Source: an uncultured Bacillales bacterium
GTDB lineage: Bacteria > Bacillota_I > Bacilli_A > RFN20 > CAG-826
DNA length: 64,000 nucleotides
Reading direction: 5' to 3'
NCBI GenBank assembly: GCA_946612115.1
Contig: CAMOEI010000001.1
Span: 130,936-194,935, forward strand
How positions within the stretch are numbered: the first letter of the stretch is position 1; every line of letters begins with the position of its first letter. This document shows positions 214 to 51,486 of the stretch, piece after piece. Made by a program: the position numbers and the translations under genes. The notes beneath the pieces are model-generated. The model searched no databases, had not been told where the DNA came from, and saw only the letters and a program-made list of their open reading frames with translations.

Positions 214-1380
214 ATGTGTAGAATAAAACACATGGAAAATGAAGAAAAAAAGCAAAAGCCTGTTTTAGATTTCTTAATCAAGACTCTTAACGGGATGGCG
301 TATGGCTTATTCGCTACTTTGATTATCGGAACAATCTTTGAAACGATTGGAACTTTATTTAATTATGGAAGTGGTAACGCCTTTTGTGATTTCATGGTTA
401 AAGTCTTTGGAACCGGAAAAAGTGGAATTAGTTTTGTTTTACAAGTCTTAACCGGAGCAGGAATTGGAGTAGGAATTGCTTTATCTTTAAAATTTGATCC
501 ACTTAAAACTATTGTTTTAGCGGGTGTAGGAATGACCGCGGCGTATTTCTCTTTGACCACTAAATTTGTGGAGAATATGTCAAGTGAAACCTACTTAGGT
601 TCGTTTGCTTTAAAAATCGGAGATCCTTTAACAATATATTTAGTGTGTATTTCGGTGGCTCTATTAATGAAAATCGTCTTAGTCAAGAAAACACCCGTCG
701 ATATTTTAATCGTTCCTCTATTCGGCCTTTTTGTCGGTTTAATCGCTAGTTTTGCTTTAGGATTTGTCTCCATTTTCATTACTTATGCGATTCAGTGGCT
801 AGTTAACGCTGGTACAAGTGCTGTTCCATTTGTGATGGGAATAGTGGTTGCTATTTTAATGGGAATGGCACTAACCGCCCCAATTAGTAGTGCAGCAATT
901 GCTGCAATGGTATTTACTATTCCAGTTGGAGCAGATTTAGCAAACTATCAAGGATTAATTATCGCCAGTGGAGCTGCGATTGTTGGCTGTTCAACTCAAA
1001 TGGTCGGATTTGCTATTCAATCAAGAAAAGATAATAACATTGGAATGTGTCTATCAATTGGTATTGGAACATCAATGCTTCAATTTAAAAATATCCTAAA
1101 GAAACCTTTGGTTTGGTTACCTACAATTATTGCTTCCGCCATCTTAGGACCTATTAGCACAATGTGGCTTAAACTTGAATGCTTAGGTAGTGCAGCAGGA
1201 ATGGGAACAGCGGGCTTAGTTGGTCAAATCGGAACAATTGCCTCTATGGGAGTCGATAAATGGCAAACCTGGGTTGGAATATTTGGATTACAAATCATCC
1301 TTCCAATGGTGTTAGTTTTTGCACTAGATTTATTATTTAGAAAATTAGGGTGGATTAAAGAAGGAGATTTAAAAGTCTAA
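214..1380 (+). CDS. polytopic membrane permease, PTS-EIIC-like (PF13303-type) family; function uncertain
   Basis: 388-aa ORF with about 10 hydrophobic Gly/Ala-rich helices and no soluble domain. Its stop overlaps the next ORF (TAATG). Confidence 0.45.
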   Translation: MCRIKHMENEEKKQKPVLDFLIKTLNGMAYGLFATLIIGTIFETIGTLFNYGSGNAFCDFMVKVFGTGKSGISFVLQVLTGAGIGVGIALSLKFDPLKTIVLAGVGMTAAYFSLTTKFVENMSSETYLGSFALKIGDPLTIYLVCISVALLMKIVLVKKTPVDILIVPLFGLFVGLIASFALGFVSIFITYAIQWLVNAGTSAVPFVMGIVVAILMGMALTAPISSAAIAAMVFTIPVGADLANYQGLIIASGAAIVGCSTQMVGFAIQSRKDNNIGMCLSIGIGTSMLQFKNILKKPLVWLPTIIASAILGPISTMWLKLECLGSAAGMGTAGLVGQIGTIASMGVDKWQTWVGIFGLQIILPMVLVFALDLLFRKLGWIKEGDLKV

Positions 1381-1856
1381 TGAAAAAGAAGATGTCAAAT
1401 GAAACAAAAATCAAACTCATCTATTCTGGCGAATTAGTGGTTATCGCTTTAATTATCCTTGTGATTTCAATTTTAAAATTTACTGGTGTGATGCCCACTA
1501 AGCAAACTAGACTTTTAGTCTACAATATTATTTCTTTAATCGGATTTGTGTGGATTGTCGTGGACTTTGTTTGGTCTATCGCCTCTAAAAAAAGAAGACA
1601 AAAGACATGCTTTTTAGATAAATTCTTAATGCTACCAGCAGGATTATACATCTTATTTTTTGATATAATGTGTTTTGCAAAATTCTTTACATATGAAGAG
1701 GCCATTGTTCAATATTCCATAGCTGGAATTTTGATGTATTTAGCGGTTATTGAACTCTTTATGGCGGTTTATCACTGGTTTAAACCAGTGCCTCAAATTC
1801 TAGAAGCGATAGAAGAGGCTAATAAGCCAGAAGAAAATATCGATCAAAAAATATAA
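1380..1856 (+). CDS. small integral membrane protein (4 TM), unknown function
   Basis: 158-aa hydrophobic ORF, translationally coupled (TAATG) to the upstream permease. Confidence 0.4.
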   Translation: MKKKMSNETKIKLIYSGELVVIALIILVISILKFTGVMPTKQTRLLVYNIISLIGFVWIVVDFVWSIASKKRRQKTCFLDKFLMLPAGLYILFFDIMCFAKFFTYEEAIVQYSIAGILMYLAVIELFMAVYHWFKPVPQILEAIEEANKPEENIDQKI

Positions 1857-1922: not shown

Positions 1923-2009
1923 TAACTCCACATTTTTTTAATTTAATTAATGAAATAATTAAGAAAGTTGACTAAAATTATAACTAAGAAAGAAGGACAT
2001 AATAACTAT

Positions 2010-3470
2010 ATGGCAAATTTGAAAGAAAGAATTTGTATTATTGGTGGTGGACCAGCTGGTCTTTCTGCTGCGATGTATCTTGAGAAAAAAGGATACGAAA
2101 ACTATGTTATTTATGAAAAATTAAACAAAGTTGGCGGAAAATGTTGGTCTCCAAAAATGAAGGTCAAACATAATGGTGTCGAAGAAGAAAAGAGTTTCGA
2201 AACCGGTGCGATTATGGGCGCCATTACCTATCACGCAGTTAGCGAGATGGAAGAATTTGGTGGCTATTATCACTGTGGACCACAATGGGCTGAAAAAGAG
2301 CCTAACATGAGAAGAGAATTCCGTACATTAGATGGTAAAGTCGATGAATGGAATAATCCAAAAGTTGATTTTAGCTTCAAAAAACTCTTTGGTTTATTAA
2401 AACTTAAGAAACAAATGAAGAAACTCAACAAGATCATGCAAACCAAATATAAAGGTTATGACTGCTATGGTCACTTAGGTGTTGCTAAAGGTGAATATTA
2501 TGGTATCTCCAAAGGTGTCGATGGATATTGCGGAGCAACCAAAGAAGATTCATTCCCTAACTACATCAAAGGAACAAACCCAAATCTTAAAGATTTAGCA
2601 TTACCATTCTCTGAATTCTGTAAGATTAACGGTGTTGAAGAAGTCCAAAGAATTTGGATCGCTCCATTCACCAGCTTCGGATATGGTTATTTCGATGAAA
2701 TCCCAGCCGCATTAGTCATGAAATATCTTGACGTTACTACCGCGATTGAATTCGTTCACATGGGATTATGGACATGGCCAGAAGGAACTCAACAAATCTA
2801 CGTTCACGTTAACGAAAAATTAAAACACCCAGCAGTGTTAGAAACTGAAGTCGTTAAAGTTGAAAGACCTGATGGAAAGATTAAAGTCACCATCAAAGGT
2901 AAAGACGGAAAGACCAAGGTTGAAGAATTCGATAAATTAATCGTTACTACCCCACTTGATTACTTCAAGGATTATGCGGACGCTAGCGATGAAGAAAAAG
3001 AATTATTCTCCAAGATCGTTCACGAAAGATATATTGACTATATCGCTACCTTCGAAGAAGGTAAATCACCAAATATTTCTGGTTACTTAGTGGAAAACAT
3101 GGTCCCAGAAAGATTAGGCCACGCGATGGTTTATTACAATAGATGGCAATATCTTGATAGAGACTGCCCAGCTACTGTTTACGCCTTAGCTAACCACACT
3201 GGAGATCCAGACAAGAAATATGAAGATGTCCAAAAGATGATGGACGAAGATATGGCCAGAGTCGGCTTCCCAATCAAAGAAAAACACTTTGCTCAAGAAG
3301 TTTATTACTGCCCACACGTTTCTTGTAAGGATTACGCTGAAGGATGGTATGACCGCCTCGAAGCTTTACAAGGTTATAAGAACACCTATTACGCTGGAGA
3401 AATTCTCTCCTTCGGTGATATGGAAGATACTTGTGCCGCTAGTAAAGATATCATCGGTAGATTCTTCTAA
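2010..3470 (+). CDS. FAD/NAD(P)-binding flavoprotein of the amine-oxidase / protoporphyrinogen-oxidase / phytoene-desaturase superfamily
   Basis: N-terminal Rossmann dinucleotide motif ICIIGGGPAGLSAAMYLEKKGY...EKLNKVGGK. About 490 aa. The ORF-track start at 1968 is a TTG; the first ATG (2010) is preferred. First gene of the candidate glycoside-ester module. Confidence 0.6.
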   Translation: MANLKERICIIGGGPAGLSAAMYLEKKGYENYVIYEKLNKVGGKCWSPKMKVKHNGVEEEKSFETGAIMGAITYHAVSEMEEFGGYYHCGPQWAEKEPNMRREFRTLDGKVDEWNNPKVDFSFKKLFGLLKLKKQMKKLNKIMQTKYKGYDCYGHLGVAKGEYYGISKGVDGYCGATKEDSFPNYIKGTNPNLKDLALPFSEFCKINGVEEVQRIWIAPFTSFGYGYFDEIPAALVMKYLDVTTAIEFVHMGLWTWPEGTQQIYVHVNEKLKHPAVLETEVVKVERPDGKIKVTIKGKDGKTKVEEFDKLIVTTPLDYFKDYADASDEEKELFSKIVHERYIDYIATFEEGKSPNISGYLVENMVPERLGHAMVYYNRWQYLDRDCPATVYALANHTGDPDKKYEDVQKMMDEDMARVGFPIKEKHFAQEVYYCPHVSCKDYAEGWYDRLEALQGYKNTYYAGEILSFGDMEDTCAASKDIIGRFF

Positions 3471-3486
3471 GAATAATCAAATAACT

Positions 3487-3512
3487 AAGCCCTCACTAGA
3501 GGGCTTTTTTAT
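3487..3512 (+). terminator. rho-independent terminator
   Basis: agccctc-acta-gagggct hairpin followed by tttttatttttc. Confidence 0.6.
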
Positions 3513-3578
3513 TTTTCTACAAAACTTTACAAATATTATTATTTATATATAATAAATAGACTATAGGAGGAAAATACA

Positions 3579-5447
3579 TTGAATAACTCTAGTGCTGTTA
3601 AACCAAAACAAAAAGTAGCAAATTCTAAAATAAAAGTTCCAGTGTTCTTCACTGTTGATGATAACTATATTCCTTTTATGACAATCACCTTAAAAAGTAT
3701 TGTCGATCACTCAAAGAAAAACATCATATACGAAATCTATGTCATTCATAGCGGACTTTCCGTTGAAAGTAAAAGAAGAGTCAAAGCGGTCACCAATAAG
3801 AAAAACTTTGTTTTTCATTTTGTTAACGTCTTCTTAAAAGTTCAAAATCTAGCGATTAGATTAGATGTTAGAGATTATTACACATCTTCAACATATTATC
3901 GTTTATTCTTGCCAGATTTATTCCCGCAAATCTCTAAAGCGATTTATATCGATAGTGATATCGTTGTTAGAGAAGATATCGCTAATTTATTTAATATCGA
4001 TTTAGAAGATAAATTATTAGGCGTTGTTCCTGATGGATCAGTCCAAATTTATCCTGAATTTATCAAATATGTTGAAACTGTTATCGCAGTTGACCACAAA
4101 GAATACTTTAACGCTGGGGTTTTATTAATGAACTTTAAAGGCCTAAGAGCGTTTAAATTTGAACAAAAATGTTTCAAATTGCTCTCTAAAGTCTCCTTCA
4201 AAGTAGCTCAAGACCAAGATATTTTAAACTTCATTACCAAGGGTAAAGTTAAATTTATAGACCCTAGATGGAACGTTATGCCTTTAGGAGAAAAAGTCGA
4301 AGATCCATATCTAGTTCACTATAATTTAATCCTTAAGCCTTGGAAACATGAAAATATCATGTATGAAGAATATTTCTGGGACGTCGCTGAAAAGCTCAAT
4401 CTCAAATATGAACTTTATGGAAGAATGATGCTCATCCCTAAAGAATTAAAAGAACAAGATTTCTTAGGAATTGAAATGGTCAAAAAGCTCTGTTTAGCGG
4501 AAGTAGAAAAAGTCGATACATATTACGCACCTATATATTCGCAAAAAGATATTATTGAAAGAAGAAATAGACAAAATTTATTTGAAGAATTGTCTTTCAA
4601 GAATATGAATTACCCACATCACGGGGAACGTCAAGCAATCTTAGATAAGATTGTGGAATATGAAAAGGCTGGCAAATTCGATCAAGATGTCGAAAATGAT
4701 CCACCATATAAACCAATTACTGTAGAAGGAATTGATTTCTTAAGAAAGAAACCACATAACAAATTTAAAAGTGCATTCGCTAATTGGTATTCCTTTAAAT
4801 ATTTCAATCATTTAATCGATAAAGGACAAATCATTATTGATGGCTATGAAGGAGTTCATAACTTAAAAGAAGTGACCACAGGAGCGGTTATTACTGCGAA
4901 TCACTTCTCCCCATTTGATAGCATTCCTTTACACAAGATCTTTAAGCAAGTTAAAAAGAATCGTAAACTCTTTAAAATTATTCGTGAAGGAAATTATTCC
5001 TTCCCAGGACTTTACGGTTTCTTTATGAGAAACTGTAACTCCATCCCTTTAGCGAGCAATTTAGAAGTTATGAGACATACTTTAAATGCGATTGACACGG
5101 TTTTATCTCGTGGGGATTATTTACTCGTTTACGCTGAACAATCGATGTGGTGGAATTATAAAAAACCAAAACCAACCAAATTAGGAGCCTTTAAGTGGGC
5201 TAGTAAAAATAATGTTCCTGTCATTCCTACTTTTATTACGATGAGAGATACAGGTGCTTTAGACGGAGAAGGATTCCCAATTAAAGCTTATACTTTACAT
5301 ATTCTTCCTGCCATTTATCCAAAAAGTAACCTTTCTATTGGAGAAAACGCTTTATATTTAAAGTCGGAAAACGATAAGGCTTGGAAAGAAGTCTATGAAC
5401 GAGTGTATGGAGAAAAACTTACATATCTATGTAATGAGGACAAATAA
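3579..5447 (+). CDS. bifunctional glycosyltransferase family 8 (N-terminal) / lysophospholipid-type acyltransferase (PlsC/LPLAT, C-terminal) fusion protein
   Basis: N-terminal domain has GT8 hallmarks: VFFTVDDNYIPF, the DxD motif YIDSDIVV, and NAGVLLMN. C-terminal domain carries the LPLAT HX4D motif (ITANHFSPFD) and FPGLYGFF/ VYAEQS motifs. TTG start at 3579 with AGGAGG 8 nt upstream. Stop overlaps the next gene (TAATG). Confidence 0.65.
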   Translation: MNNSSAVKPKQKVANSKIKVPVFFTVDDNYIPFMTITLKSIVDHSKKNIIYEIYVIHSGLSVESKRRVKAVTNKKNFVFHFVNVFLKVQNLAIRLDVRDYYTSSTYYRLFLPDLFPQISKAIYIDSDIVVREDIANLFNIDLEDKLLGVVPDGSVQIYPEFIKYVETVIAVDHKEYFNAGVLLMNFKGLRAFKFEQKCFKLLSKVSFKVAQDQDILNFITKGKVKFIDPRWNVMPLGEKVEDPYLVHYNLILKPWKHENIMYEEYFWDVAEKLNLKYELYGRMMLIPKELKEQDFLGIEMVKKLCLAEVEKVDTYYAPIYSQKDIIERRNRQNLFEELSFKNMNYPHHGERQAILDKIVEYEKAGKFDQDVENDPPYKPITVEGIDFLRKKPHNKFKSAFANWYSFKYFNHLIDKGQIIIDGYEGVHNLKEVTTGAVITANHFSPFDSIPLHKIFKQVKKNRKLFKIIREGNYSFPGLYGFFMRNCNSIPLASNLEVMRHTLNAIDTVLSRGDYLLVYAEQSMWWNYKKPKPTKLGAFKWASKNNVPVIPTFITMRDTGALDGEGFPIKAYTLHILPAIYPKSNLSIGENALYLKSENDKAWKEVYERVYGEKLTYLCNEDK

Positions 5448-6067
5448 TGTACTTTTTAGCAATTATTTTAATTTGTAGTTTTATAATCTATCTCCCTCAT
5501 GCGATTATCAATCCATGGAACTTACCTAATCCGTGGTTATATTATTTTCTCGCAGTGGCCATCTACGTTATTGGAGAAGTTATTTTAGACGGAGTTATCG
5601 CTTTTATTATTCGTCGACTCCCAGAGAAGTGGATGAATCCAAGAAAAGGGATGATTCATGCCAGCGATAAAGAACTTAAGTTCTTAAAAGCTATTAAAGT
5701 CGAGAGTTGGAAGCGTTTCATGCCTGATTTAGGAATGTTTACCAAATTCCAAAAAGGAAAATTAGATGATCCATATAATAACGAATATATTCATCGTTAT
5801 ATTGTTGAAGCTAGTTATGGGGTAGTGATCCATTATTTAAGCGTTCCATTCGGCTTTTTGATTCTTTTACTCGGATTAATCGAACCAAATAACTTGACGA
5901 CGTGGTCAATAGGTTTACCAGTTATCTTTGTTAACTCAGTCTTGATTCTCGCCCCGGCGTTAACATTAAAATATAACATTCCTCGTCTATTAAGGATTTA
6001 TGACCTTAATGAACGATTAAAAGCGAAAAAAGAGGCTAAATTAGCTAAAGAAAACGAAAATAAATAA
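5447..6067 (+). CDS. 4-TM membrane protein resembling the CrtO family (glycosyl-4,4'-diaponeurosporenoate acyltransferase)
   Basis: 206 aa with four hydrophobic helices. Cytoplasmic loop W..R..PDLG and C-terminal KYNIPRLLRI resemble the S. aureus CrtO motifs W.HKILDG and QRYNRPRLTQLLRI; this comparison is from memory, not a computed alignment. Translationally coupled to the GT8/LPLAT gene. Confidence 0.45.
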   Translation: MYFLAIILICSFIIYLPHAIINPWNLPNPWLYYFLAVAIYVIGEVILDGVIAFIIRRLPEKWMNPRKGMIHASDKELKFLKAIKVESWKRFMPDLGMFTKFQKGKLDDPYNNEYIHRYIVEASYGVVIHYLSVPFGFLILLLGLIEPNNLTTWSIGLPVIFVNSVLILAPALTLKYNIPRLLRIYDLNERLKAKKEAKLAKENENK

Positions 6068-6189: not shown

Positions 6190-7827
6190 ATGACTATTGC
6201 AGAAAAAATTGTTCATTTAAGAGTTGTTAATAATATTTCTCAAGAAGAACTCGCAACTAAACTTAACGTTACTAGACAAACAGTCAGTAAGTGGGAAAGC
6301 GGAGACACTCTTCCTCAATTAGATAAAGTTAGCGAACTTTGTGAATTATTTAAAATAACCGCTGATGAATTAATTAACGATAATGTTGTTATCCATCGCG
6401 GAAAGCAACTAGTGCCAAGCATTGGAGAAGATGTGAAAACCAAATATTTTGGCACTGATGGCTTTAGAGGAGAGGTCAATAAAGTATTAACTTGTGACCA
6501 CGCCTATAAAATCGGTCGATTCTTAGGATGGTTTTACGGAAATCCAAAATATAACGGACAAAAACCAGGATATCGACCAAAGGTTGTTATCGGTAAAGAT
6601 ACCAGAAGATCTTCATATATGTTAGAGTATGCGGTCGCTAGTGGATTAGCGGCTAGTGGAGCGGATGTCTGTTTACTTCACGTAACGACTACACCAAGCG
6701 TTTCTTACATAGTAAGACAAGACTATTTTGACTGCGGAGTAATGATTACCGCAAGCCACAATCCTTTCTATGATAACGGAATTAAAGTTATTAACTGTAA
6801 CGGAGAGAAATTAGAAGACGCAGTTGCAGTATTAATCGAAGCCTATATTGACGGAGATTTAAAGAAATTAGGTGTTGAAGGAGATGACCTCCCATTCGCG
6901 GAAAGAGGAGAAATCGGTCAAATCATCGATTATAGCTCCGGAAGAAATCGATACATTGGTTATCTCATCTCATTAGCAAAACACTCCATGAAGAGCCTAA
7001 AAATCGGCTTAGACTGCGCTAACGGGGCGAGCTGGATGATTGCCAAAAGTGTTTTTGACGCTTTAGGAGCCCAAACCTTTGTTATTAATAACAATCCAGA
7101 TGGTTTAAATATTAATTTAGATGCTGGAAGTACACATATTGAAAATTTCTGTAAATACGTTAAACAAAATAAACTAGATCTCGGCTTTGCCTTTGACGGA
7201 GACGCTGATAGATGTATCGCTGTAGATGAATCTGGTAGAGAAGTTGATGGAGATAAGATTATGTACTTATTATCCAATAAACTTAAAGCGGAAGGCTCAT
7301 TAGACAAAGACACATTAGTAACGACAATTATGTCTAACTCAGGTCTATTTAAAGCCTTAAAACAAGTTGGGATTTCTGTCACACAAACTAAGGTTGGAGA
7401 CCGTTTCGTTTACGAAAGAATGCAAAATGAAGGCTATGCCTTAGGTGGAGAGCAATCCGGTCACATTATCATTAAAAAGTATGCGACTACTGGAGATGGC
7501 ATCTTAACTGCGATTATGGTCACTGAAGAAGTATTAGAAAGAAAAGCAAAGCTTTCAACTTTAGTTGCCCCAGTTAAGCTCATCCCACAAGTCACTAAAA
7601 ACGTTAGAGTGACTAATAAGGCTGCAGTTATCGCTGATGAACTTGTTCAAGCTAAATTTAAAGAAGTGAATGATGAAATCGGAGATAATGGAAGAGCGTT
7701 ATTAAGACAAAGTGGAACTGAACCAGTTGTTAGAATAACAATTGAATTAGATAATAAAGCCAAAGTTGATGAATATGTCGAAAAGATTTATAACGTCATC
7801 AAGAAAAGAGGATATATCTGTGAATAA
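6190..7827 (+). CDS. glmM: phosphoglucosamine mutase with an N-terminal XRE-type helix-turn-helix domain (HTH::GlmM fusion)
   Basis: Residues 1-63 form a classic HTH_3 (ISQEELATKLNVTRQTVSKWESGDTLPQLDKVSEL). From about residue 85 the sequence is GlmM: KYFGTDGFRGEVN, the active-site serine loop ITASHNPFYDNGIK, DGDADRC, and GGEQSGH. Single uninterrupted ORF. Confidence 0.8.
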   Translation: MTIAEKIVHLRVVNNISQEELATKLNVTRQTVSKWESGDTLPQLDKVSELCELFKITADELINDNVVIHRGKQLVPSIGEDVKTKYFGTDGFRGEVNKVLTCDHAYKIGRFLGWFYGNPKYNGQKPGYRPKVVIGKDTRRSSYMLEYAVASGLAASGADVCLLHVTTTPSVSYIVRQDYFDCGVMITASHNPFYDNGIKVINCNGEKLEDAVAVLIEAYIDGDLKKLGVEGDDLPFAERGEIGQIIDYSSGRNRYIGYLISLAKHSMKSLKIGLDCANGASWMIAKSVFDALGAQTFVINNNPDGLNINLDAGSTHIENFCKYVKQNKLDLGFAFDGDADRCIAVDESGREVDGDKIMYLLSNKLKAEGSLDKDTLVTTIMSNSGLFKALKQVGISVTQTKVGDRFVYERMQNEGYALGGEQSGHIIIKKYATTGDGILTAIMVTEEVLERKAKLSTLVAPVKLIPQVTKNVRVTNKAAVIADELVQAKFKEVNDEIGDNGRALLRQSGTEPVVRITIELDNKAKVDEYVEKIYNVIKKRGYICE

Positions 7828-8494
7828 GTTAAATATTAAAACTTCTGAATTATTTCACACTGAAGAAACCTATTTAAGAGAAGTCTTCAATAATTCGACT
7901 TATCCTTGGGAAATTCTCCCTCAAATCAAAGAGATTTGTAAAAGAGTCCTAGAAAGTGGTTTACCAGGGTATCACCTTCTAAAAGAAGGAGTGTTAGTAG
8001 GAGAAAACGTTAAAATCTCTCCTTTCGCCACAATTGAACCGCCTTGCATCATCGGAAAAGACACTGAACTTCGTCCAGGAGCGTTTATTAGAGGAAATGT
8101 CATCATTGGAGAAAGCTGTGTCATCGGTAATTCAAGCGAATTAAAAAATTCAATATTATTGAATCACGTCCAAGTTCCACATTATAACTATGTTGGAGAT
8201 TCAATCTTAGGAGATTACGCTCATATGGGAGCGGGATCAATTCTCTCAAATTTAAAAAGTGGAGGTAAAAACATTACCATTCACGGAGATAAAGAATATG
8301 AGACTGGTTTAAGAAAAATCGGAGCGTTCCTTGGAGAACACGCTGATATTGGATGCGGAAGCGTTCTTAATCCAGGAACCATCATTGGTAAAAACACCAA
8401 TGTCTATCCATTAAGTATGTTAAGAGGGTGCTATCCAGAAAATAGCATCGTCAAAGAAAACAACAAAGTTGTTGATAAAGATTTAAATCGATAA
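7820..8494 (+). CDS. stand-alone left-handed beta-helix (hexapeptide-repeat) acetyltransferase, GlmU C-terminal-domain-like
   Basis: Hexapeptide repeats throughout (IIGKDTELRPGAFIRGNVIIGESCVIGNSSEL...). The likely start is the GTG at 7820 with a GAGGA RBS, overlapping the glmM stop; the ORF track extends the frame back to 7766. Confidence 0.55.
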   Translation: MNKLNIKTSELFHTEETYLREVFNNSTYPWEILPQIKEICKRVLESGLPGYHLLKEGVLVGENVKISPFATIEPPCIIGKDTELRPGAFIRGNVIIGESCVIGNSSELKNSILLNHVQVPHYNYVGDSILGDYAHMGAGSILSNLKSGGKNITIHGDKEYETGLRKIGAFLGEHADIGCGSVLNPGTIIGKNTNVYPLSMLRGCYPENSIVKENNKVVDKDLNR

Positions 8495-8510: not shown

Positions 8511-9233
8511 ATGAAAGTAGTTGTCGGCACAAATGAAGAGATCAGCAAGCAAATTGCTGAAGAATTTATCAAACAAGTTCAAAAGAAACCAAATTCAGTT
8601 TTAGGTTTAGCCACAGGAACATCCCCATTACAAGTCTACGCAAATCTGGTCGAGGCTAATAAAAGTGGAAGAGTTTCCTTTAAAGATGTTGTGACATTTA
8701 ATCTAGATGAATATATCGGATTAGAAGGAACACACAATCAATCTTATCGATATTTCATGAATGAAAATTTATTCAATCACATCGATATCGATAAATCTAA
8801 GACCCATGTTTTAAAAGGTGTTGGTGATTATTTGGATTACGCTAATAAATACGATGATTTAATCGCTTCCTTTGGCGGAATTGATTTACAAATCCTTGGT
8901 ATTGGTAGTGATGGACATATCGCTTTTAATGAACCAGGCACCTCATTTGATAGTCTTACTCACGTTGCCGATTTAGCGGAATCAACTATTGTTGATAACT
9001 CTAGATTATTCAATGATATCTCAGAAGTTCCTACTAAAGCAGTGACCATGGGATTAAAAAGCATTATGAATGCGAAAAAGATTGTCTTGATCGCTACTGG
9101 TAAAAACAAAGCTAAAGCCATTAAAGAATTATTAACTGGCGATAAGAGCGAAGAAAATCCTGCTAGTGTTCTTATCGATCATCCAGATGTCACCATCTAC
9201 GTCGATAAAGATGCTTATAGTTTAGTTAAATAA
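8511..9233 (+). CDS. nagB: glucosamine-6-phosphate deaminase
   Basis: MKVVVGTNEEISKQIAEEF...LGLATGTSPL...ILGIGSDGHIAFNEPGTSF is the canonical NagB/6-phosphogluconolactonase fold. RBS GGAGG upstream. Confidence 0.85.
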   Translation: MKVVVGTNEEISKQIAEEFIKQVQKKPNSVLGLATGTSPLQVYANLVEANKSGRVSFKDVVTFNLDEYIGLEGTHNQSYRYFMNENLFNHIDIDKSKTHVLKGVGDYLDYANKYDDLIASFGGIDLQILGIGSDGHIAFNEPGTSFDSLTHVADLAESTIVDNSRLFNDISEVPTKAVTMGLKSIMNAKKIVLIATGKNKAKAIKELLTGDKSEENPASVLIDHPDVTIYVDKDAYSLVK

Positions 9234-11059: not shown

Positions 11060-11872
11060 ATGATTGTTGAACTTTGCGTCATTCTTATCGACTTACTTTT
11101 TACAACTTTAATTACCTTATTTTGTATTCCAGTAGGTCGTGGATATCACTATTTCGCCCCATTTTTACTTTTGATTGCCGGCTATATCGTCGGAATGATT
11201 ATTATGTGGTGCGTTTTAAGCGCCTTCACTTTAGTGGTCTCTAAAAAGAAGAAATACGTAAAGCCGATGAAATGGGCAAATTTCTGGCTTACTGAAGCGA
11301 TTAGTTATATCGACATCCATTCAGGAGCAAGGATGAAGATCACTTATAAAGAACCTCTTCCTAATGAGAGATATTTATTAGTCTGTAATCATTTATCTAA
11401 ATTCGATCCGATGCTATTAACAAAAGTTTATGGCCATAAAGGTTTATCCTTTATCTCTAAACCAACAAACTTCAAAATCCCAATCGGAGGAAGATTTATG
11501 AGAGGGGCTTGCTATTTATCAATCGATAGATTTGATAAGCTCCAATCATTAACGGTTATGAATGATGCAGCGGAGTTAATTAAAAATAATTACACCTCCG
11601 TTGGAGTCTTCCCAGAAGGAACTAGATCTTTAGATGGTTCTTTAGGTCAATTCCATGAAGGAGTCTTCCAAATCGCTAAAAAAGCGAATTGTCCAATCGT
11701 CATTGTGACAATAAGTGGAACGGAAAACATTCATAAGAATTTCCCATTTAAACCAACAAAAGTAAACTTAGTTATTCATAAAGTTTTATATCCAAATGAA
11801 CATAATGTCATGATTGCTAAACAGATTAGTGATTACGCAAGAAACATTATGTTTGAGGAATTAAAGAAATAG
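11060..11872 (+). CDS. plsC: 1-acyl-sn-glycerol-3-phosphate acyltransferase (LPLAT), membrane-anchored
   Basis: N-terminal TM helices, then the HX4D motif (CNHLSKFD), FPEGTRS and a proline motif. Confidence 0.75.
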   Translation: MIVELCVILIDLLFTTLITLFCIPVGRGYHYFAPFLLLIAGYIVGMIIMWCVLSAFTLVVSKKKKYVKPMKWANFWLTEAISYIDIHSGARMKITYKEPLPNERYLLVCNHLSKFDPMLLTKVYGHKGLSFISKPTNFKIPIGGRFMRGACYLSIDRFDKLQSLTVMNDAAELIKNNYTSVGVFPEGTRSLDGSLGQFHEGVFQIAKKANCPIVIVTISGTENIHKNFPFKPTKVNLVIHKVLYPNEHNVMIAKQISDYARNIMFEELKK

Positions 11873-13582: not shown

Positions 13583-15421
13583 ATGGAAACATTCTCTAAA
13601 GACGAGACAACTTTTAAAGATGAGGCTTTATTAGAACCATTAGATTTTTATAAGTCTCAACTAAAAGACGCTTTTCACGATAACGCGGAAGAATATTTTG
13701 ATAAACTCACAAAAAAATCAAAGATTGATGTCGAAGCTAATCGACTTGCTTGTAAAAAATATTACGAAGAATGTAAGTCAGTTGATTCTTTGAAAAAAGA
13801 TAAAAGTGGAAAAGTTGGTTTAAAGGCTCTATTTATCGTCTTTCTCGTCTTTTTAGCGATAGCGATAACTATTATCATTACCTTGACATTTACTAATCCA
13901 GGATTACTCCATTTAGCGGTTTCTATCGCAGTTCCTATAGGAGCGGCGGGATTAATCGCTTTATGTATTGTTGGTATTGTTAAACAAAACAAATTAATTT
14001 CAGGATTAAATGAAGAAATCGATAAACATAACGGAATTGCTAGCAAATGCAAAGATGAGGCAAGCCAATTAATCGCAGGATTAAATAGACTCTTTGAGTC
14101 TAATATGGCGGTTCATCTCATGTCTAAAACCACTCCAGTCGTGGATTTAGATCAAGATTTTGATCCGGAGAAATATTCCTATTTACACGAAAAATATGGT
14201 TATGAAACATCTAATAGAAAAGATGAATCCATTCTTTTTGTTCAATCAGGTCATATCTTAGGCAACCCTTTCATCATCGAAAGAGTCTATAACCAAAACA
14301 TGGTTAATCATGTCTACACTGGCACTTTAACTATTTCATGGACTGAAAGAGTGAGCAACGGAAAAGGTGGCTATACAACTGTAGTGAGAACACAGACATT
14401 AACCGCTCATGTGACCGCACCTTTACCAAATTATTGGACGAGCACGAGATTAATTTTTGGTAGTGAAGCCGCTCCTAGATTATCTTTTTCTAGACATCCT
14501 ACTGGGCACGGAAATGACGATGATAAAGCCTTAGAAAGATACGTTAAGAAATTCGATAAGGAATTAGATAAAAAAGTCGCGAAAGATTTAAAAGATGGAA
14601 ATGCCTCTTTTACGAGATTATATAACGAAACATTTGAAGCTTTATTTAACGCTCTAGATAGAGATAATGAAACTGAGTTTAGACTTCTTTTCACCCCTCT
14701 TGCTCAAAAGAATATGATTAATCTAATTAGAGATGTTGATAATATCGGTTATGGTGATGACTTCTCTTTTATAAAGAGAAAAGAGCTTAATTATATCAAC
14801 GCAAGTCATTTAAACGCTTCAAAAACGCTTGATTATGGACCTGAAAATATCCGCCATTTTGACTATGATATCGTTCGCTCTAATTTTATTAATTACTGCG
14901 ATACATATTGCAAGGAAATCTATTTCGCTTTAGCCCCGTTAATTTGCATTCCGTTATATCAACAACATAAAACTAGAGAATATATTTATAACGGACAATT
15001 TGGTCATAATATTACTCAAGCCGAAGCTGAAAGCGCGGCTAATAAACATAGTTGGAATTTATTTAAACATCCGGCAACTAGAAGTTTAGGTGTTATCTTA
15101 AAGAGTCGATTTGAAAAGGTAAACGAAACAGTGGATGAATGTATCATTACCGCTCATTCATTTTCAGGCACTGATCGAGTGACTTATGTTTCGGTTTATG
15201 GAGGAGATGGACATTATCATCAAGTTCCTGTTCACTGGGTGGAATATAATCCAATCAGTCAAGATACTTGCTTTGCTATAGGTAGAGCAAAAGAAGATAA
15301 TTATGTCGACTTCTCCGATAAATATACCGCTGGAGATTATAATAAATTATTATCTCGCTACAATATTCAAGATACTGTATTATATAGAAAAGGGTTATAT
15401 TCTTTCGTTAAGAAAGATTAA
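13583..15421 (+). CDS. large membrane protein of unknown function (soluble N-term, 2 TM at about aa 80-135, 470-aa C-terminal domain); LemA-associated
   Basis: 612-aa ORF with strong hydrophobic hairpin ALFIVFLVFLAIAITIIITL...AVSIAVPIGAAGLIALCIVGIV. No domain recognised by eye. Directly upstream of lemA with a 32-nt gap. Confidence 0.5.
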   Translation: METFSKDETTFKDEALLEPLDFYKSQLKDAFHDNAEEYFDKLTKKSKIDVEANRLACKKYYEECKSVDSLKKDKSGKVGLKALFIVFLVFLAIAITIIITLTFTNPGLLHLAVSIAVPIGAAGLIALCIVGIVKQNKLISGLNEEIDKHNGIASKCKDEASQLIAGLNRLFESNMAVHLMSKTTPVVDLDQDFDPEKYSYLHEKYGYETSNRKDESILFVQSGHILGNPFIIERVYNQNMVNHVYTGTLTISWTERVSNGKGGYTTVVRTQTLTAHVTAPLPNYWTSTRLIFGSEAAPRLSFSRHPTGHGNDDDKALERYVKKFDKELDKKVAKDLKDGNASFTRLYNETFEALFNALDRDNETEFRLLFTPLAQKNMINLIRDVDNIGYGDDFSFIKRKELNYINASHLNASKTLDYGPENIRHFDYDIVRSNFINYCDTYCKEIYFALAPLICIPLYQQHKTREYIYNGQFGHNITQAEAESAANKHSWNLFKHPATRSLGVILKSRFEKVNETVDECIITAHSFSGTDRVTYVSVYGGDGHYHQVPVHWVEYNPISQDTCFAIGRAKEDNYVDFSDKYTAGDYNKLLSRYNIQDTVLYRKGLYSFVKKD

Positions 15422-16754: not shown

Positions 16755-17987
16755 ATGGGAACTCCATTAGCGGAATTAATTAGACCTTCATCACTAGATG
16801 AAATGGTGGGACAAGAACACTTATTCAATAAGAATAGTTTATTTAGAAAGATGATTTCTAAAAACATTATTCCGAATATGATTTTTTATGGTCCTCCTGG
16901 AGTGGGCAAGACTACAGTCGCTAATATAATCGCCAAAAACACTGAGATGTTACTTTGTAAACTTAACGGAACCACCGCAAGTTTAGACGATGTTAAAAAA
17001 GTGATTGATGAATCAAAAAGTGTTTTCGCAGGTAAGGGAGTTTTACTTTATTTAGATGAAATCCAATACTTCAATAAAAAGCAGCAGCAATCTTTATTAG
17101 AGTACGTTGAAAAAGGACTAATTACCTTAATTGCTTCAACAACTGAAAACCCATATTTTTATATCTATCCCGCTTTATTATCTAGATGTAATGTTTTTGA
17201 ATTTAAAGCGATTACCACAAAAGATATCAAAAAAGGATTAAAAAGAATTGTTGAATTAGAGAAAATCAAGATTGATGAGGATGCTTTAGACTTATTAAGT
17301 CTATCTTCTAATGGAGATATGAGAAAAGCGGTCAACAATCTAGAATTTGTTCATAACGCTTTAGGAAGTAAACAAATTAGAAAAGTGGACGTTGACCAAA
17401 TAGTGGATAAAGCCCATATCGTCTACGATAAAAGCGAAGATAAACATTATGATCATTTAAGTGCACTAATGAAATCCTTAAGAGGAAGCGATCCAGATGC
17501 AGCGATTTTCTATATGGCCAAGATGCTTGAAGCAGGCGATTTACAAGCGGTTTGTAGAAGAATATTATGCTCAGTAAATGAAGATGTTGGTTTAGCCTAC
17601 CCTTCATTAATTCCAATCGTCAAGTCTTGCGTTGATACCGCCCTTCAACTTGGAATGCCAGAAGCTAAACTTCCTTTAAGTAATGCCGTTATTTTAATTG
17701 CTACTGCACCAAAAAGTAATAGCGCGTATCTAGCCTATGCTAAAGCGGTTGAAGACATTAATATGGGTAAAGGAGTAGGAGTGCCTAGACAACTTCAAAA
17801 CACCCACTTCGACGGGGAAGATGCTTTAGTGAAAGGTCAAAATTATTTATATCCTCATGACTATAAGAATCACTGGGTCAAACAACAATATTTGCCAGAT
17901 GATGTTAAAGATAGACATTATTACCTTTATGGTAATAACAAATTTGAACAAGCTTTAAAAGAATATTGGGAAAAGATTAAGAAATAA
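16755..17987 (+). CDS. rarA: replication-associated recombination protein A (AAA+ ATPase RarA/MgsA)
   Basis: PLAELIRPSSLDEMVGQEHL, Walker A GPPGVGKTT, and C-terminal MgsA helical domains. The ORF-track TTG at 16719 lies inside the terminator stem, so ATG 16755 is preferred. Confidence 0.8.
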   Translation: MGTPLAELIRPSSLDEMVGQEHLFNKNSLFRKMISKNIIPNMIFYGPPGVGKTTVANIIAKNTEMLLCKLNGTTASLDDVKKVIDESKSVFAGKGVLLYLDEIQYFNKKQQQSLLEYVEKGLITLIASTTENPYFYIYPALLSRCNVFEFKAITTKDIKKGLKRIVELEKIKIDEDALDLLSLSSNGDMRKAVNNLEFVHNALGSKQIRKVDVDQIVDKAHIVYDKSEDKHYDHLSALMKSLRGSDPDAAIFYMAKMLEAGDLQAVCRRILCSVNEDVGLAYPSLIPIVKSCVDTALQLGMPEAKLPLSNAVILIATAPKSNSAYLAYAKAVEDINMGKGVGVPRQLQNTHFDGEDALVKGQNYLYPHDYKNHWVKQQYLPDDVKDRHYYLYGNNKFEQALKEYWEKIKK

Positions 17988-18892
17988 TGGATAGTTTAAA
18001 AAGTTTACTCGATCAAAAGAAATATGATTTAGTGCTTACCTTAACTGAAGGTAGCAAATCTCCAAATGACTTATTTTATCGAATAAGCGCTTTTATCTAT
18101 TTAGGTAAATATGAAGATGCTTTATATGTCATTCAAGATAATCAATCAATATTAGAGACAAATCTAGTAAGCTTAATTTCCGCTCATATCAATTTACTTT
18201 GCATCTTAGGAAGATTCGAACAAGCTTATAGCACCCTGGATTATTACAATAACCTACCTTATCAGTCTCAAGCCGTGGAAGAAATCTTAAGAAAAATGCC
18301 TCAAGTCATCGCTTTAGAAGAAAAGAAAAATTCTCAAGTTAAATATTACGATGATGAACAAGTTGAACAAATGCTCTCAAGCAATATCAGTGAAGACGTC
18401 CTTCTCGGATTAGATATTGTTAGAAAAAGAGATGTTTTATCTTTCCTCCCATTTTTAGAAAAAGTGATGCTTAATTTTCCTAAGCAATCAATTAGAAACT
18501 ACACCTTGATGCTTTTAGTGCAAAAAGAAGTCGATCGAAATATCAAAATTCTTCATCAGGGAGAAATTATTGAAGTAAATCCTAAATTATTAACTGCTCC
18601 ATTTACCTCGATTACATTTAATGAAGTAATTCGTAATTTTGACCGTGAGTTTAAAGATCCAACATTATCTCAAACCGCCACACAATTATTTTCAGAATAT
18701 TCCTTATATCTATATCCTCGAGACTATAAATACACCGCAAACGAATTAACTGGCATCTTTTATCTCATCGCCAAAGAATATATTAACGATCCAGTATTCG
18801 AGTTAGAAGATTACTGTGATACTAATGGTTTAGATATCTATAAGATATCTAGTGCGATTAAGGAAATTAAAGATATCATCGAAGATTTCTAA
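17987..18892 (+). CDS. hypothetical soluble protein (301 aa), translationally coupled to rarA
   Basis: ATG overlaps the rarA stop (TAATGG). Helical, TPR-like N-terminal region. No recognisable motif. Confidence 0.5.
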   Translation: MDSLKSLLDQKKYDLVLTLTEGSKSPNDLFYRISAFIYLGKYEDALYVIQDNQSILETNLVSLISAHINLLCILGRFEQAYSTLDYYNNLPYQSQAVEEILRKMPQVIALEEKKNSQVKYYDDEQVEQMLSSNISEDVLLGLDIVRKRDVLSFLPFLEKVMLNFPKQSIRNYTLMLLVQKEVDRNIKILHQGEIIEVNPKLLTAPFTSITFNEVIRNFDREFKDPTLSQTATQLFSEYSLYLYPRDYKYTANELTGIFYLIAKEYINDPVFELEDYCDTNGLDIYKISSAIKEIKDIIEDF

Positions 18893-50728: not shown

Positions 50729-51486
50729 ATTTGAATAAATCTTTTAACGATATAAATAATCAAACTCACTATGAGCATTATTGCAATCGCAATAAATGAA
50801 TAGGCAAAAGTGGAGACAAGTCCATTATATTGATTAATAAACGAGACCGAAATCGCTCTACCTAAGCCATATACCGAAGAGGAAGAAGTAAGGACTTCCG
50901 CCATAATTTCGATTTTAAAAGATAAAGCAAAACTTGATACCAAACCCAAGGCGATATGTGGGAACGCTAGTGGTAATTTGATTTTAAAGTTATTTAAAAG
51001 GGCATTAGCGCTATCAACTCTCATAGCCATGAGTATTTGTGTGTCTAAATTAGAATAGCCGCTTATCGTGGCTTCATAAACCATTGGAAAGACAATGACC
51101 ATCACGATATATATCGGAGCGTTTTTAAAACCTACTAAAACCATCAATAAATAAACTAAAGCGGCAGTAGGAACTGCCTTCAAGGCAATCATCGTTGGAT
51201 TAAAGATATGTTTCATCTTTAGATGATTACCAACAATCATCCCTAAAATAATCGCTAAAATTGAGGAAATGGAGAATCCAATAAGCATTCTAGATAAAGA
51301 TCCCCATATGCATTTATATAAGTATGGGTCTCCAAAATAGGTGAACGCTTCCTTTAATGTGGTAATCGGACCAGGAAAAATTAGATTACTTTGACCAGCG
51401 GCAAAATATATGACGGTCCAGATTCCAAAAAATAGAAGGATTCCGAGTATTGAGAAAGTATATTTATTGATAAATAACTTCTTCAC
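50716..51486 (-). CDS. ABC transporter permease (binding-protein-dependent inner-membrane component, SsuC/TauC/NMT1-associated type)
   Basis: 6-TM permease with EAA-like loop. Overlaps the upstream SBP gene. Confidence 0.7.
   Translation of the reverse strand: MKKLFINKYTFSILGILLFFGIWTVIYFAAGQSNLIFPGPITTLKEAFTYFGDPYLYKCIWGSLSRMLIGFSISSILAIILGMIVGNHLKMKHIFNPTMIALKAVPTAALVYLLMVLVGFKNAPIYIVMVIVFPMVYEATISGYSNLDTQILMAMRVDSANALLNNFKIKLPLAFPHIALGLVSSFALSFKIEIMAEVLTSSSSVYGLGRAISVSFINQYNGLVSTFAYSFIAIAIMLIVSLIIYIVKRFIQIKSA

Follow-up and report, generated by a model that had tools for sequence, protein, structure and literature searches.

Neighbouring genes for a glycosyltransferase and a subsequent sugar O-acylation are known from CrtQ/CrtO, which take part in staphyloxanthin synthesis in S. 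aureus, and from M. extorquens, in which META1p3663/3664 encode an adjacent glycosyltransferase and LPLAT and the latter acylates the sugar of a C30 carotenoid glucoside ester (PMC10448405). A comparable succession is found in mycobacteria, where PimA/PimB glycosylate a lipid at the cytoplasmic face and PatA, an HX4D enzyme with the LPLAT fold, O-acylates the sugar. As regards the single activities, the GT8 enzymes LgtC, the alpha-1,4-galactosyltransferase of Neisseria, and WbbM of Klebsiella, whose C-terminal GT8 domain serves galactan I, use Gram-negative lipooligosaccharide or O-antigen sugars as acceptors and have no acyltransferase domain, and in the acyltransferase PlsC the FPEGTR motif III is the phosphate-binding element.

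In the window (the whole stretch of DNA that was analysed, 64 kb), one gene joins a GT8 module to an acyltransferase module, and its features are the following:

3579..5447, + strand: GT8-acyltransferase fusion gene, 622 aa, TTG start, TAA stop at 5445-5447
3565..3570, + strand: Shine-Dalgarno sequence AGGAGG, with an 8 nt spacer before TTG 3579
3630..4577, + strand: GT8 module (GT-A fold, predicted retaining-type), residues ~18-333, Pfam PF01501
3951..3959, + strand: DxD metal and nucleotide-sugar binding motif, D125-S-D127, invariant in 41 homologs
4578..4616, + strand: variable, disordered interdomain linker, residues 334-346, pLDDT <50, with gapped and poorly conserved columns
4617..5444, + strand: LPLAT-superfamily O-acyltransferase module of the 'EQSMWWNY' subfamily, residues 347-622, Pfam PF01553
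4902..4919, + strand: HX4D catalytic motif, H442-F-S-P-F-D447, with H442 and D447 invariant
5130..5174, + strand: subfamily signature YAEQSMWWNYKKPKP, residues 518-532, standing where PlsC has FPEGTR motif III

The ORF listing and the translation give 3579..5447 as a single ORF with 0 internal stops. Upstream starts are ruled out because an in-frame TAG (3564-3566) lies 5' of the TTG, and the next canonical start, a GTG at V22, sits within the conserved first beta-strand; on the sequence, TTG 3579 is the sole plausible start, as the earlier note had read it from the AGGAGG 8 nt upstream. That note had also described one 622-aa protein of a GT8 and an LPLAT-type half, which is borne out by two Pfam domains above cutoff, and the motifs that it quoted are all in place (YIDSDIVV at 123-130, NAGVLLMN at 178-185, NHFSPFD at 441-447, FPGLYGFF at 475-482, and VYAEQS at 517-522). 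Its limit of about 330 for the GT8 part agrees with the ~333 found here, while the acyltransferase module begins at ~347 and not at 430; both limits were placed by the position of the break in relatives that are split into two genes.

By profile, fold and motifs, the N-terminal module belongs with the GT8 enzymes LgtC and WbbM. PF01501 (Glyco_transf_8, Pfam) matches residues 22-257 (E 9.4e-48, 163.4 bits against a cutoff of 24.3); residues 263-333 form a C-terminal helical region, like the extension behind the catalytic core of LgtC, and the AF2 pLDDT is mostly >90 across the module. Foldseek matched it to WbbM (6u4b, E 1e-19) and LgtC (1ss9/1g9r), both with a probability of 1.00; over the two enzymes the E values range from 1e-20 to 7e-21 by sequence and from 1e-17 to 1e-19 in Foldseek, at 26% identity. 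The GT-A fold, the DxD, DQDI(L/M)N and H-x5-KPW motifs are common to LgtC, WbbM and the module, in which the DxD, DQD and H-x5-KPW residues are intact. In the alignment of 41 homologs D125/D127, D212-Q213-D214 and H247 are all invariant; D125-S-D127 aligns with IDSD of WbbM, and the DQD and H247 also align. A search for extra GT8 or LPLAT paralogs within the 64-kb window found none.

The C-terminal module is, on profile and predicted fold, an HX4D enzyme of the PlsC/GPAT/PatA fold, but not PlsC proper. The match to PF01553 (Acyltransferase, Pfam) that the earlier note expected for this half is found at residues 426-553 (E 2.7e-11, 43.8 bits against a cutoff of 23). Compared by sequence with the PDB, the module gave no match even at E 10, and fold comparison alone found relatives: the AF2 model of the module (346-622; pLDDT 89, pTM 0.88) retrieved PlsC (5kym, E 8e-7), GPAT (1iuq/1k30) and PatA (5f2t) in Foldseek. 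With T. maritima PlsC (5KYM), GPAT/AGPAT and PatA it has in common the alpha/beta fold, the HX4D dyad, the motif II Arg and the hydrophobic VPV(I/V)P motif IV, and stand-alone homologs of 270-300 aa span its whole length. The window holds a PlsC of its own (11060..11872, 82 bits) that keeps FPEGTR; the acyltransferase domain is 22% identical to it (E 0.002), and the HX4D motif aligns with its NHLSKFD. Opposite its FPEGTRSLDG, however, stands YAEQSMWWNYKKPKP, so that (F)PEGTR, motif III of PlsC, is replaced by YAEQSMWWNY; Y518, E520, Q521, S522, W524, W525, N526, Y527, K529, P530, K531 and P532 are invariant in the homologs, and the subfamily as such has an invariant (A/P)EQSMWWNYxKPKP in contrast to the FPEGTR of PlsC. 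An N-terminal extension, 'ERxEILxKIxxxExxGKFDxDVENDPP', is likewise found in this family and not in PlsC, and TIGR00530, the profile of PlsC proper, gives the fusion 26.6 bits against a cutoff of 102.95. The LPLAT module, called complete in the earlier note, is therefore not complete in the PlsC sense.

The same signature (EHSMWWNYQKPRP) is carried by a GT2-acyltransferase fusion (P0308; 32% identity, E 6e-29), in which the 'EQSMWWNY' subfamily has been joined, as a separate event, to a membrane GT2. Neither the stand-alone acyltransferases nor the GT2 fusion matched a specific family in NCBIfam scans. Relatives are annotated as '1-acyl-sn-glycerol-3-phosphate acyltransferase' or 'LPS biosynthesis glycosyltransferase', and NCBI gives a PlsC name.

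In split relatives, the site of the linker is taken up by the stop codon of one gene and the RBS and ATG of the next. In the full-length AF2 model the interdomain geometry is uncertain (pTM 0.54), and substrate channelling is for this reason not arguable; submitted to Foldseek, this model returned GT8 matches only, and the acyltransferase module was therefore modelled alone. The fusion protein has 0 TM segments, and a hydrophobic-moment scan of it for amphipathic, membrane-binding helices gave nothing convincing.

The most informative neighbour, a translationally coupled CrtO-family gene that the earlier note did not link to the fusion, follows the fusion directly, and two putative signals precede the fusion gene:

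5447..6067, + strand: CrtO-family integral membrane protein, 206 aa, Pfam PF18927
3487..3506, + strand: intrinsic-terminator-like hairpin with a T-run, 8-bp stem with 5 GC pairs, then TTTTATTTTT
3526..3553, + strand: putative sigma-70-like promoter, TTTACA-16 nt-TATAAT, 11/12 consensus matches

PF18927 matches 5447..6067 with E 1.6e-13 (51.4 bits against a cutoff of 27.3), and the protein has four TM-like segments and a conserved E121-x3-G125-x3-H129. Its ATG overlaps the stop codon of the fusion (TAATG), an arrangement that recurs at the related loci L081 and L082, and the gene adjoins the GT8/acyltransferase pair in 33 of the best 80 of 301 candidate loci. Its product is probably, from family membership and position, a second (sugar) O-acyltransferase or a membrane partner; the family is, as we take it, defined by one genetically characterised enzyme, and the term acyltransferase is an extrapolation for 5447..6067. 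Loci without it usually contain, instead, another GT8 together with a paralog of the acyltransferase: an extra GT8 gene is adjacent in 37 loci, none of which has the CrtO-like gene (0/37), and many of these 37 also hold a second LPLAT paralog (NHTxxxD, PEAHIWPYY). This distribution suggests a non-homologous replacement of an acylation step. On the other side, the hairpin at 3487..3506 ends an upstream FAD-oxidoreductase gene and parts it from the fusion gene. Most flanking genes differ from locus to locus, and which lipid genes lie nearby depends on the lineage: a DagK/YegS-type lipid kinase and PlsC lie downstream of the pair in the window and in L001, PlsX neighbours it in Christensenellaceae, and related loci include, besides PlsX, acyl-ACP thioesterase, acyl-CoA-ligase-like and LPG_synthase_TM flippase-like genes as well as ABC (MsbA-like), MATE and MMPL exporters.

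Gut and rumen Firmicutes often carry the two modules together, either in one fused gene or in two adjacent ones. The genome scan gave 301 candidate loci, and both halves are present in all of the best 80, with 57 fused and 23 as adjacent GT8 and acyltransferase genes; at every split locus (23/23) the stop and the downstream gene share one reading frame, although in-frame splits are enriched in the best 80 because the ranking prefers single long tblastn HSPs. The GT8 gene of split relatives ends at aligned residues 305-357, and split operons of the two genes with 4-nt overlaps occur in cultured Lactobacillaceae. With G for GT8, A for acyltransferase and a prime for a second copy, the gene order is A'-G'-G-A in Furfurilactobacillus rossiae and G-A in Lactiplantibacillus sp. 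WILCCON 0030; Muricomes intestini and Bovifimicola ammoniilytica are further cultured hosts. Programmed stop-codon readthrough was considered for the split loci and rejected, since a separate RBS and ATG are present at each of the junctions and the ranking in itself favours in-frame stops. As fused and split states are intermixed on the NJ tree of acyltransferase domains, the fusion is, on this tree, one state of a gene pair prone to fusing and splitting. To call the fusion unusual, as the earlier note did, was an overstatement, whereas its proposal that the same architecture be sought elsewhere was fruitful (full-length two-domain proteins in >120 clusters at 90% identity, in addition to the fused loci), and its idea of glycosylation followed by acylation in one pathway gains comparative support from modules that are always adjacent or fused and from an acyltransferase subfamily found on a GT2 as well.

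The GT8/acyltransferase module thus probably builds an acylated membrane glycolipid. In the preferred reading, for which we see a somewhat better than even chance, 3579..5447 would be a soluble or peripheral-membrane bifunctional enzyme that, as a two-gene unit with 5447..6067, assembles an acylated alpha-glycosyl membrane lipid. We infer donor, acceptor and product alike: the GT8 domain would use a UDP-sugar to attach an alpha-hexose to a membrane lipid, most likely diacylglycerol or glycosyl-diacylglycerol, and the acyltransferase domain would next O-acylate the glycosylated product, on the sugar itself or on a neighbouring hydroxyl, with acyl-ACP or acyl-CoA as donor. The Trp-Trp-Asn-Tyr motif may serve sugar recognition in place of phosphate recognition. 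The CrtO-like protein could attach one more acyl chain to the sugar, in the manner of CrtO, which acylates O-6 of glucose during staphyloxanthin synthesis, or alternatively act as a membrane tether for the fusion enzyme, and the fusion would mark an obligatory coupling of the two activities and not a new activity. Characterised bacterial GT8s (LgtC, WaaI/J, WbbM, GlyE) mostly act on sugars or proteins and not on bare lipids, and the first acceptor is for this reason perhaps not diacylglycerol.

Literature searches on GT8-acyltransferase fusions, on CrtO-like (PF18927) proteins outside carotenoids, on Firmicutes acylated glycolipid enzymes and on the Acholeplasma monoacyl-glucolipid acyltransferase yielded no paper about this family, no lipid attributed to its genes, and no named enzyme for the extra sugar acyl chain. 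A bolder proposal, which we advance tentatively and rate as rather doubtful, is that the GT8 and 'SMWWNY' LPLAT pair, with a CrtO-family partner or a second GT8 and LPLAT paralog, makes an undescribed class of multiply acylated alpha-glycolipids. If so, many Firmicutes of gut and rumen, and Lactobacillaceae, would produce such lipids, with acyl-sugar lipids and sugar-acylated glycosyl-diacylglycerols among the candidates; SMWWNY would be the mark of an LPLAT clade that reads a sugar head group, not phosphate, and the function of CrtO-family proteins, as sugar O-acyltransferases in general, would extend far past carotenoid pigments.

It is unlikely, in our estimate, that the locus instead makes an acyl-sugar or lipoglycan primer de novo by lipidating a soluble sugar or oligosaccharide, with an alpha-linked sugar unit built by the GT8, the acyltransferase(s) as the source of its sole acyl chains, and export as the last step. 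Each locus type has two acylating components (the acyltransferase and the CrtO-like protein, or two acyltransferases), one or two GT8s per locus make a diacyl mono- or disaccharide feasible, GT8 enzymes prefer sugar acceptors, and the MsbA-like ABC, MATE, MMPL and flippase-like genes recur near the pair; however, no pathway gene for a soluble acceptor is conserved nearby, and DagK/PlsC in the window and L001 and PlsX in Christensenellaceae point to the glycerolipid pool. The acceptor is the sole difference from the membrane-lipid reading, and computation cannot separate the two.

Quite improbable are two independent enzymes, namely a housekeeping PlsC-type acyltransferase and a GT8 that acts on a non-lipid surface glycan, teichoic acid or protein. 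The source annotations of relatives as PlsC-type acyltransferase or LPS glycosyltransferase, PlsC as the top structural match of the acyltransferase module, and glycans or proteins as the usual GT8 targets would suit them, but the TIGR00530 score and the replaced motif III do not, and 11060..11872 is a separate and much better PlsC candidate. Moreover, the modules are adjacent or fused at every locus examined, across lineages without other common flanking genes, and the acyltransferase subfamily is also joined to a GT2; unrelated functions are disfavoured because this constant adjacency and the GT2 fusion are not expected for them.

A carotenoid glycoside ester would call for the FAD enzyme to oxidise a C30 carotenoid, for the GT8 to attach the sugar as a stand-in for CrtQ, and for the LPLAT, the CrtO-like protein or both to acylate that sugar; this pathway is very improbable, and the carotenoid acceptor named in the earlier note is correspondingly unlikely. 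The downstream gene does belong to the PF18927 CrtO family, the upstream gene matches Amino_oxidase/NAD_binding_8, the superfamily of CrtN and CrtP, and a glycosyltransferase and LPLAT pair does exactly such chemistry in M. extorquens (PMC10448405). However, the FAD protein fits the crtI family over the N-terminal Rossmann motif alone (20 bits against a cutoff of 238), its gene is separated from the fusion by the terminator and promoter, and it adjoins the pair in 0 of the 80 related loci. Neither a CrtM-type squalene/phytoene synthase nor a CrtN/CrtP desaturase or oxidase was found among the size-plausible ORFs of the window, all housekeeping, or among the recurrent neighbour clusters of the 80 loci; the pair occurs in anaerobes of gut and rumen and in Lactobacillaceae, and CrtQ is a GT2, whereas the glycosyltransferase here is a GT8. 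Finally, that a sequencing, assembly or frameshift artefact joined two separate genes into 3579..5447, as the 23 loci with separate genes and an in-frame stop might suggest, is refuted for practical purposes by an identical 622-aa ORF in three independent assemblies (one a 381-kb scaffold), by uninterrupted ORFs of ~590-640 aa in 57 of the 80 loci and in >120 protein clusters, by the stop-free window ORF, and by a window linker without the RBS-plus-ATG junction typical of split forms.

Among the acylated glycolipids of Gram-positive bacteria are some that anchor lipoteichoic acid in the membrane and some that serve innate and NKT-cell receptors as ligands. The GT8/acyltransferase pair is a concrete candidate module for sugar acylation, and because it is widespread, marked by a recognisable signature and split in cultured Lactobacillaceae, the question is directly testable by knockout and lipidomics. 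The generic annotations 'PlsC' and 'phospho-beta-glycosidase' on these proteins are corrected, and CrtO-family proteins are seen to occur routinely outside carotenoid pathways.

Among the known systems, the mycobacterial one is alike in its order of lipid glycosylation and sugar O-acylation by an HX4D enzyme, and PatA is among the top structural matches of the acyltransferase module, yet at 11% identity in the structural alignment; PimA/PimB are GT4 enzymes, the genes are unfused, and the acceptor, phosphatidylinositol, is unexpected in these Firmicutes. The staphyloxanthin-type cluster (crtOPQMN) differs in its carotenoid backbone genes, which were not found among the size-plausible ORFs of the window or the recurrent neighbours, and in that the hosts here are anaerobes, and CrtQ is not of the GT8 type of the fusion, which is predicted to be retaining and alpha-forming. 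CrtQ/CrtO and META1p3663/3664 nevertheless follow the same logic of neighbouring genes for glycosylation and then sugar O-acylation: S. aureus CrtO belongs to the Pfam family of the partner 5447..6067, the M. extorquens acyltransferase is an LPLAT as in the fusion, and the fusion locus, unlike either of them, has both an LPLAT and a CrtO-like protein.

The fusion of a GT8 glycosyltransferase with a lysophospholipid-type (LPLAT) acyltransferase (AT) is encoded by a single ORF (3579..5447, + strand) of 622 codons with zero internal stops in the ORF listing and the translation. As the earlier note had read it, both domains lie in one 622-aa protein, and all the motifs it quoted are found where it had placed them. 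Both Pfam domains score well above the curated cutoffs: Glyco_transf_8 at residues 22–257 (E 9.4e-48) and Acyltransferase PF01553, the family against which the C-terminal half was to be checked, at residues 426–553 (E 2.7e-11). A frameshift or assembly artefact is excluded for practical purposes because the identical, uninterrupted protein occurs in three independent assemblies, one copy lying on a 381-kb scaffold. The proposed TTG start at 3579 is well supported by elimination and sequence context, because it is the first canonical start 3' of an in-frame TAG, it follows an AGGAGG at 8 nt within a terminator/promoter context, and the next start, a GTG at codon 22, falls inside the conserved first beta-strand VPVFFTVDDNY, so that no workable alternative exists in frame; this strand is present in all homologs, each with at least a few residues N-terminal to it. 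The elements upstream of the fusion are:

3487-3506, + strand, terminator hairpin that ends the preceding gene
3526-3553, + strand, promoter-like site TTTACA-16-TATAAT, near consensus
3564-3566, + strand, in-frame stop TAG that shuts the reading frame just 5' of the fusion
3565-3570, + strand, Shine-Dalgarno AGGAGG with an 8-nt spacer to TTG 3579

The full-length AlphaFold2 model, built on 41 homologs (mean pLDDT 86.6), comprises two well-folded modules and a disordered linker (residues 334–346); transmembrane segments were looked for in the protein and none was found. The N-terminal module superposes on WbbM (6u4b) and LgtC (1ss9, 1g9r) with 26% identity and Foldseek E values of 1e-17 to 1e-19, and D125/D127 of the DxD motif, DQD 212–214 and H247-x5-KPW are invariant across the family and aligned to WbbM. 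A sequence search with the AT module detected no solved structure; the separate AlphaFold2 model of the module (pLDDT 89, pTM 0.88) shares a common fold with the solved structures of T. maritima PlsC (5kym, E 8e-7), plant GPAT (1iuq, 1k30) and mycobacterial PatA (5f2t). H442 and D447 (HX4D) and R484 are invariant. The module had been described as a complete LPLAT; however, it is not complete in the PlsC sense, since the FPEGTR of PlsC is replaced by an invariant (A/P)EQSMWWNYxKPKP and the TIGR00530 score of 26.6 bits falls far below the cutoff of 102.95. Alignment with the PlsC-like gene of the window (11060..11872; 22% identity, E 0.002) sets YAEQSMWW opposite FPEGTRS. The module is a genuine member of the LPLAT superfamily, but not a PlsC.

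The architecture, considered unusual from the sequence alone, is instead common and was found in many other genomes. A protein search with the fusion gave 1522 matches, the best 120 clusters (529–624 aa, 48–99% identity) being all two-domain; a locus scan with one genome per species gave 301 candidate loci, and both halves are covered in all of the best 80, which were analysed. These derive from metagenome-assembled gut and rumen genomes labelled Clostridia, Lachnospiraceae, Christensenellaceae, Bacilli, Ca. Scatosoma and Ca. Onthoplasma, and from the cultured Bovifimicola ammoniilytica. A continuous ORF of 554–640 aa is present in 57 of these 80 best loci, while in the other 23 an RBS and an ATG, a few to a few dozen nt after a stop at aligned residues 305–357, open a separate AT gene that begins M..ERLEILEKIEEYEK. 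This junction coincides with the disordered linker of the window protein, and the AT module therefore starts at about residue 347. In a rough NJ tree of AT domains the fused forms intermingle with the split ones, and fusion and fission have therefore occurred repeatedly; the fusion is, in the classic Rosetta-stone sense, one state of two tightly coupled genes. The AT module alone retrieves 617 clusters (E <= 1e-3) among 1.84 billion representative proteins, a mix of fused (~600 aa) and stand-alone (~270–300 aa) forms. The latter are frequent among cultured Lactobacillaceae (Secundilactobacillus, Furfurilactobacillus rossiae, Lactiplantibacillus, Companilactobacillus, and also Levilactobacillus, Ligilactobacillus and Lacticaseibacillus brantae) and present in Muricomes intestini; in all three Lactobacillaceae loci examined a GT8 gene precedes the AT gene, the two overlapping by 4 nt. 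The name 'phospho-beta-glycosidase', given to stand-alone AT proteins in several records from Lactobacillaceae and metagenomes, looks like a misannotation that has spread.

The informative partner, left unlinked to the fusion in the earlier note, is the CrtO-family gene directly downstream (5447..6067, + strand), whose ATG overlaps the TAA stop of the fusion (TAATG). Its 206-aa product, with four TM-like segments, is a member of PF18927 (CrtO, glycosyl-4,4'-diaponeurosporenoate acyltransferase; E 1.6e-13, 51 bits, cutoff 27.3); its conserved positions include E121-x3-G125-x3-H129, where the third hydrophobic segment begins. Of the 80 best loci (of 301), 33 have a homolog directly beside the GT8/AT pair, mostly downstream and twice upstream, and in two further contigs inspected (L081, L082) the gene also overlaps the stop codon with other flanks different. 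The remaining best loci form a second type without the CrtO-like gene: 37 of the 80 (of 301), all among these, carry an extra GT8 gene, often with a second AT of ~260 aa, and no locus among the 80 has both the CrtO-like gene and the extra GT8. The second AT has no Pfam match on record; since it carries NHTxxxD and PEAHIWPYYTxIRPFK, it is by its motifs clearly an LPLAT-like paralog, of the same unusual clade as the fusion AT. This family (~255–275 aa) often accompanies the pair where the CrtO-like gene is missing among the best 80 loci, and members with both motifs are found at:

8362..9153 in L005
3463..4230 in L083
6854..7681 in L084
4430..5203 in L088, the F. rossiae locus

In the simplest reading there would be two acylating components in either locus type, with the second acylation carried out alternatively by the CrtO-family protein or by the LPLAT paralog.

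A staphyloxanthin-like carotenoid cluster is hinted at by the CrtO-like gene together with an upstream FAD gene:

1968..3470, + strand, FAD/NAD-binding 'amine oxidase' superfamily protein of 500 aa, in which only the Rossmann motif matches named families

In another assembly this gene is called from a later start (486 aa). The carotenoid reading is nevertheless disfavoured: similarity of the FAD protein to the crtI family is confined to the dinucleotide-binding motif (20 bits, cutoff 238), a terminator and a promoter-like site separate its gene from the fusion, the gene is absent beside the pair in related loci, and the hosts are gut or rumen anaerobes and lactobacilli. Moreover, of ten size-plausible ORFs scanned elsewhere in the window eight are housekeeping (MgsA, RuvB, RecJ, Obg, HisS, tyrosine recombinase, DinB and a metalloenzyme-superfamily protein) and two are without a Pfam match; the ORFs 17987..18892 (+ strand) and 51464..52417 (- strand), ~300 aa each, have zero Pfam families at E <= 1e-4.

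Taken together, the neighbours indicate metabolism and export of membrane lipids, not glycosylation of proteins or wall polymers. The CrtO-like gene is followed by HTH-GlmM, hexapeptide acetyltransferase, NagB-like, Y_phosphatase3, DagK/YegS-type lipid kinase and PlsC-like genes; L001, the locus of the closest genome relative (63% identity), has GT8-AT, CrtO-like, phosphatase, DagK and PlsC without amino-sugar genes. Other lineages add PlsX, acyl-ACP thioesterase, an AMP-binding acyl-ligase-like enzyme, an LPG_synthase_TM (flippase-like) protein, MsbA-like ABC exporters and a MATE transporter, and F. rossiae TetR and MMPL; none of these neighbours is universal across the loci. Further features are:

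1380..1856, + strand, multi-pass membrane protein of 158 aa, no Pfam/NCBIfam match
6190..7827, + strand, HTH_3-GlmM ORF of 545 aa, with XRE-type HTH_3 (residues 14-61) and complete GlmM (phosphoglucosamine mutase; TIGR01455, 492 bits, residues 87-538)
7766..8494, + strand, hexapeptide-repeat protein of 242 aa similar to GlmU in its C-terminal acetyltransferase half only, without the nucleotidyltransferase domain
8511..9233, + strand, NagB-like gene, after the hexapeptide-repeat gene
13583..15421, + strand, MAG1210-family protein (NF046000, 581 bits), a name presumably derived from a Mycoplasma locus tag, which, if so, would suggest that the window comes from a Mollicutes-like or reduced Bacilli lineage

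A homolog of the 158-aa protein (48% identity) lies directly upstream of GT8-AT in L001, and it may be part of the same neighbourhood in this clade. Relative to L001, the amino-sugar trio is an insertion that separates the CrtO-like gene from the phosphatase-DagK-PlsC block; the hexapeptide-repeat gene and the 3' end of the GlmM ORF share ~60 nt. The joining of a DNA-binding domain to GlmM looks unusual, and it is called as one gene in the independent assembly L086.

The AT subfamily is also found beyond GT8. In the protein P0308 (691 aa; L090 643..2718) a membrane GT2 domain (Glyco_tranf_2_3) precedes an AT domain that has 32% identity to the window module (E 6e-29) and the same signature EHSMWWNYQKPRP; the subfamily has therefore become joined to two unrelated glycosyltransferase folds, which is difficult to account for unless the AT acts on, or together with, the product of a glycosyltransferase. 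P0267 (591 aa, high-GC organism) combines a 'SMWWNY' AT with a C-terminal SAM methyltransferase. The suggestion that one enzyme glycosylates and then acylates remains plausible, its pairing of activities now backed comparatively by the fused or adjacent modules and the GT2 fusion. Most likely the two genes serve to make an acylated alpha-glycosyl membrane lipid, for which we infer substrates, product and order of steps: the peripheral GT8-LPLAT enzyme would make this lipid, and the integral-membrane CrtO-like protein would work with it. A literature search for the GT8-AT family found no published description; the family matters mainly as it is widespread in gut Firmicutes, with tractable split-gene versions in cultured Lactobacillaceae.

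The fusion would belong with the known glycosyltransferase plus sugar-acyltransferase modules for acyl-glycolipids. A precedent for the chemistry, similar in its neighbouring glycosyltransferase and LPLAT genes, is Methylobacterium extorquens AM1, in which the LPLAT META1p3664, whose gene adjoins the glycosyltransferase gene META1p3663, is needed for acylation of a carotenoid glucoside on its glucose; in the final product the acyl group sits at glucose O-2 (PMC10448405).
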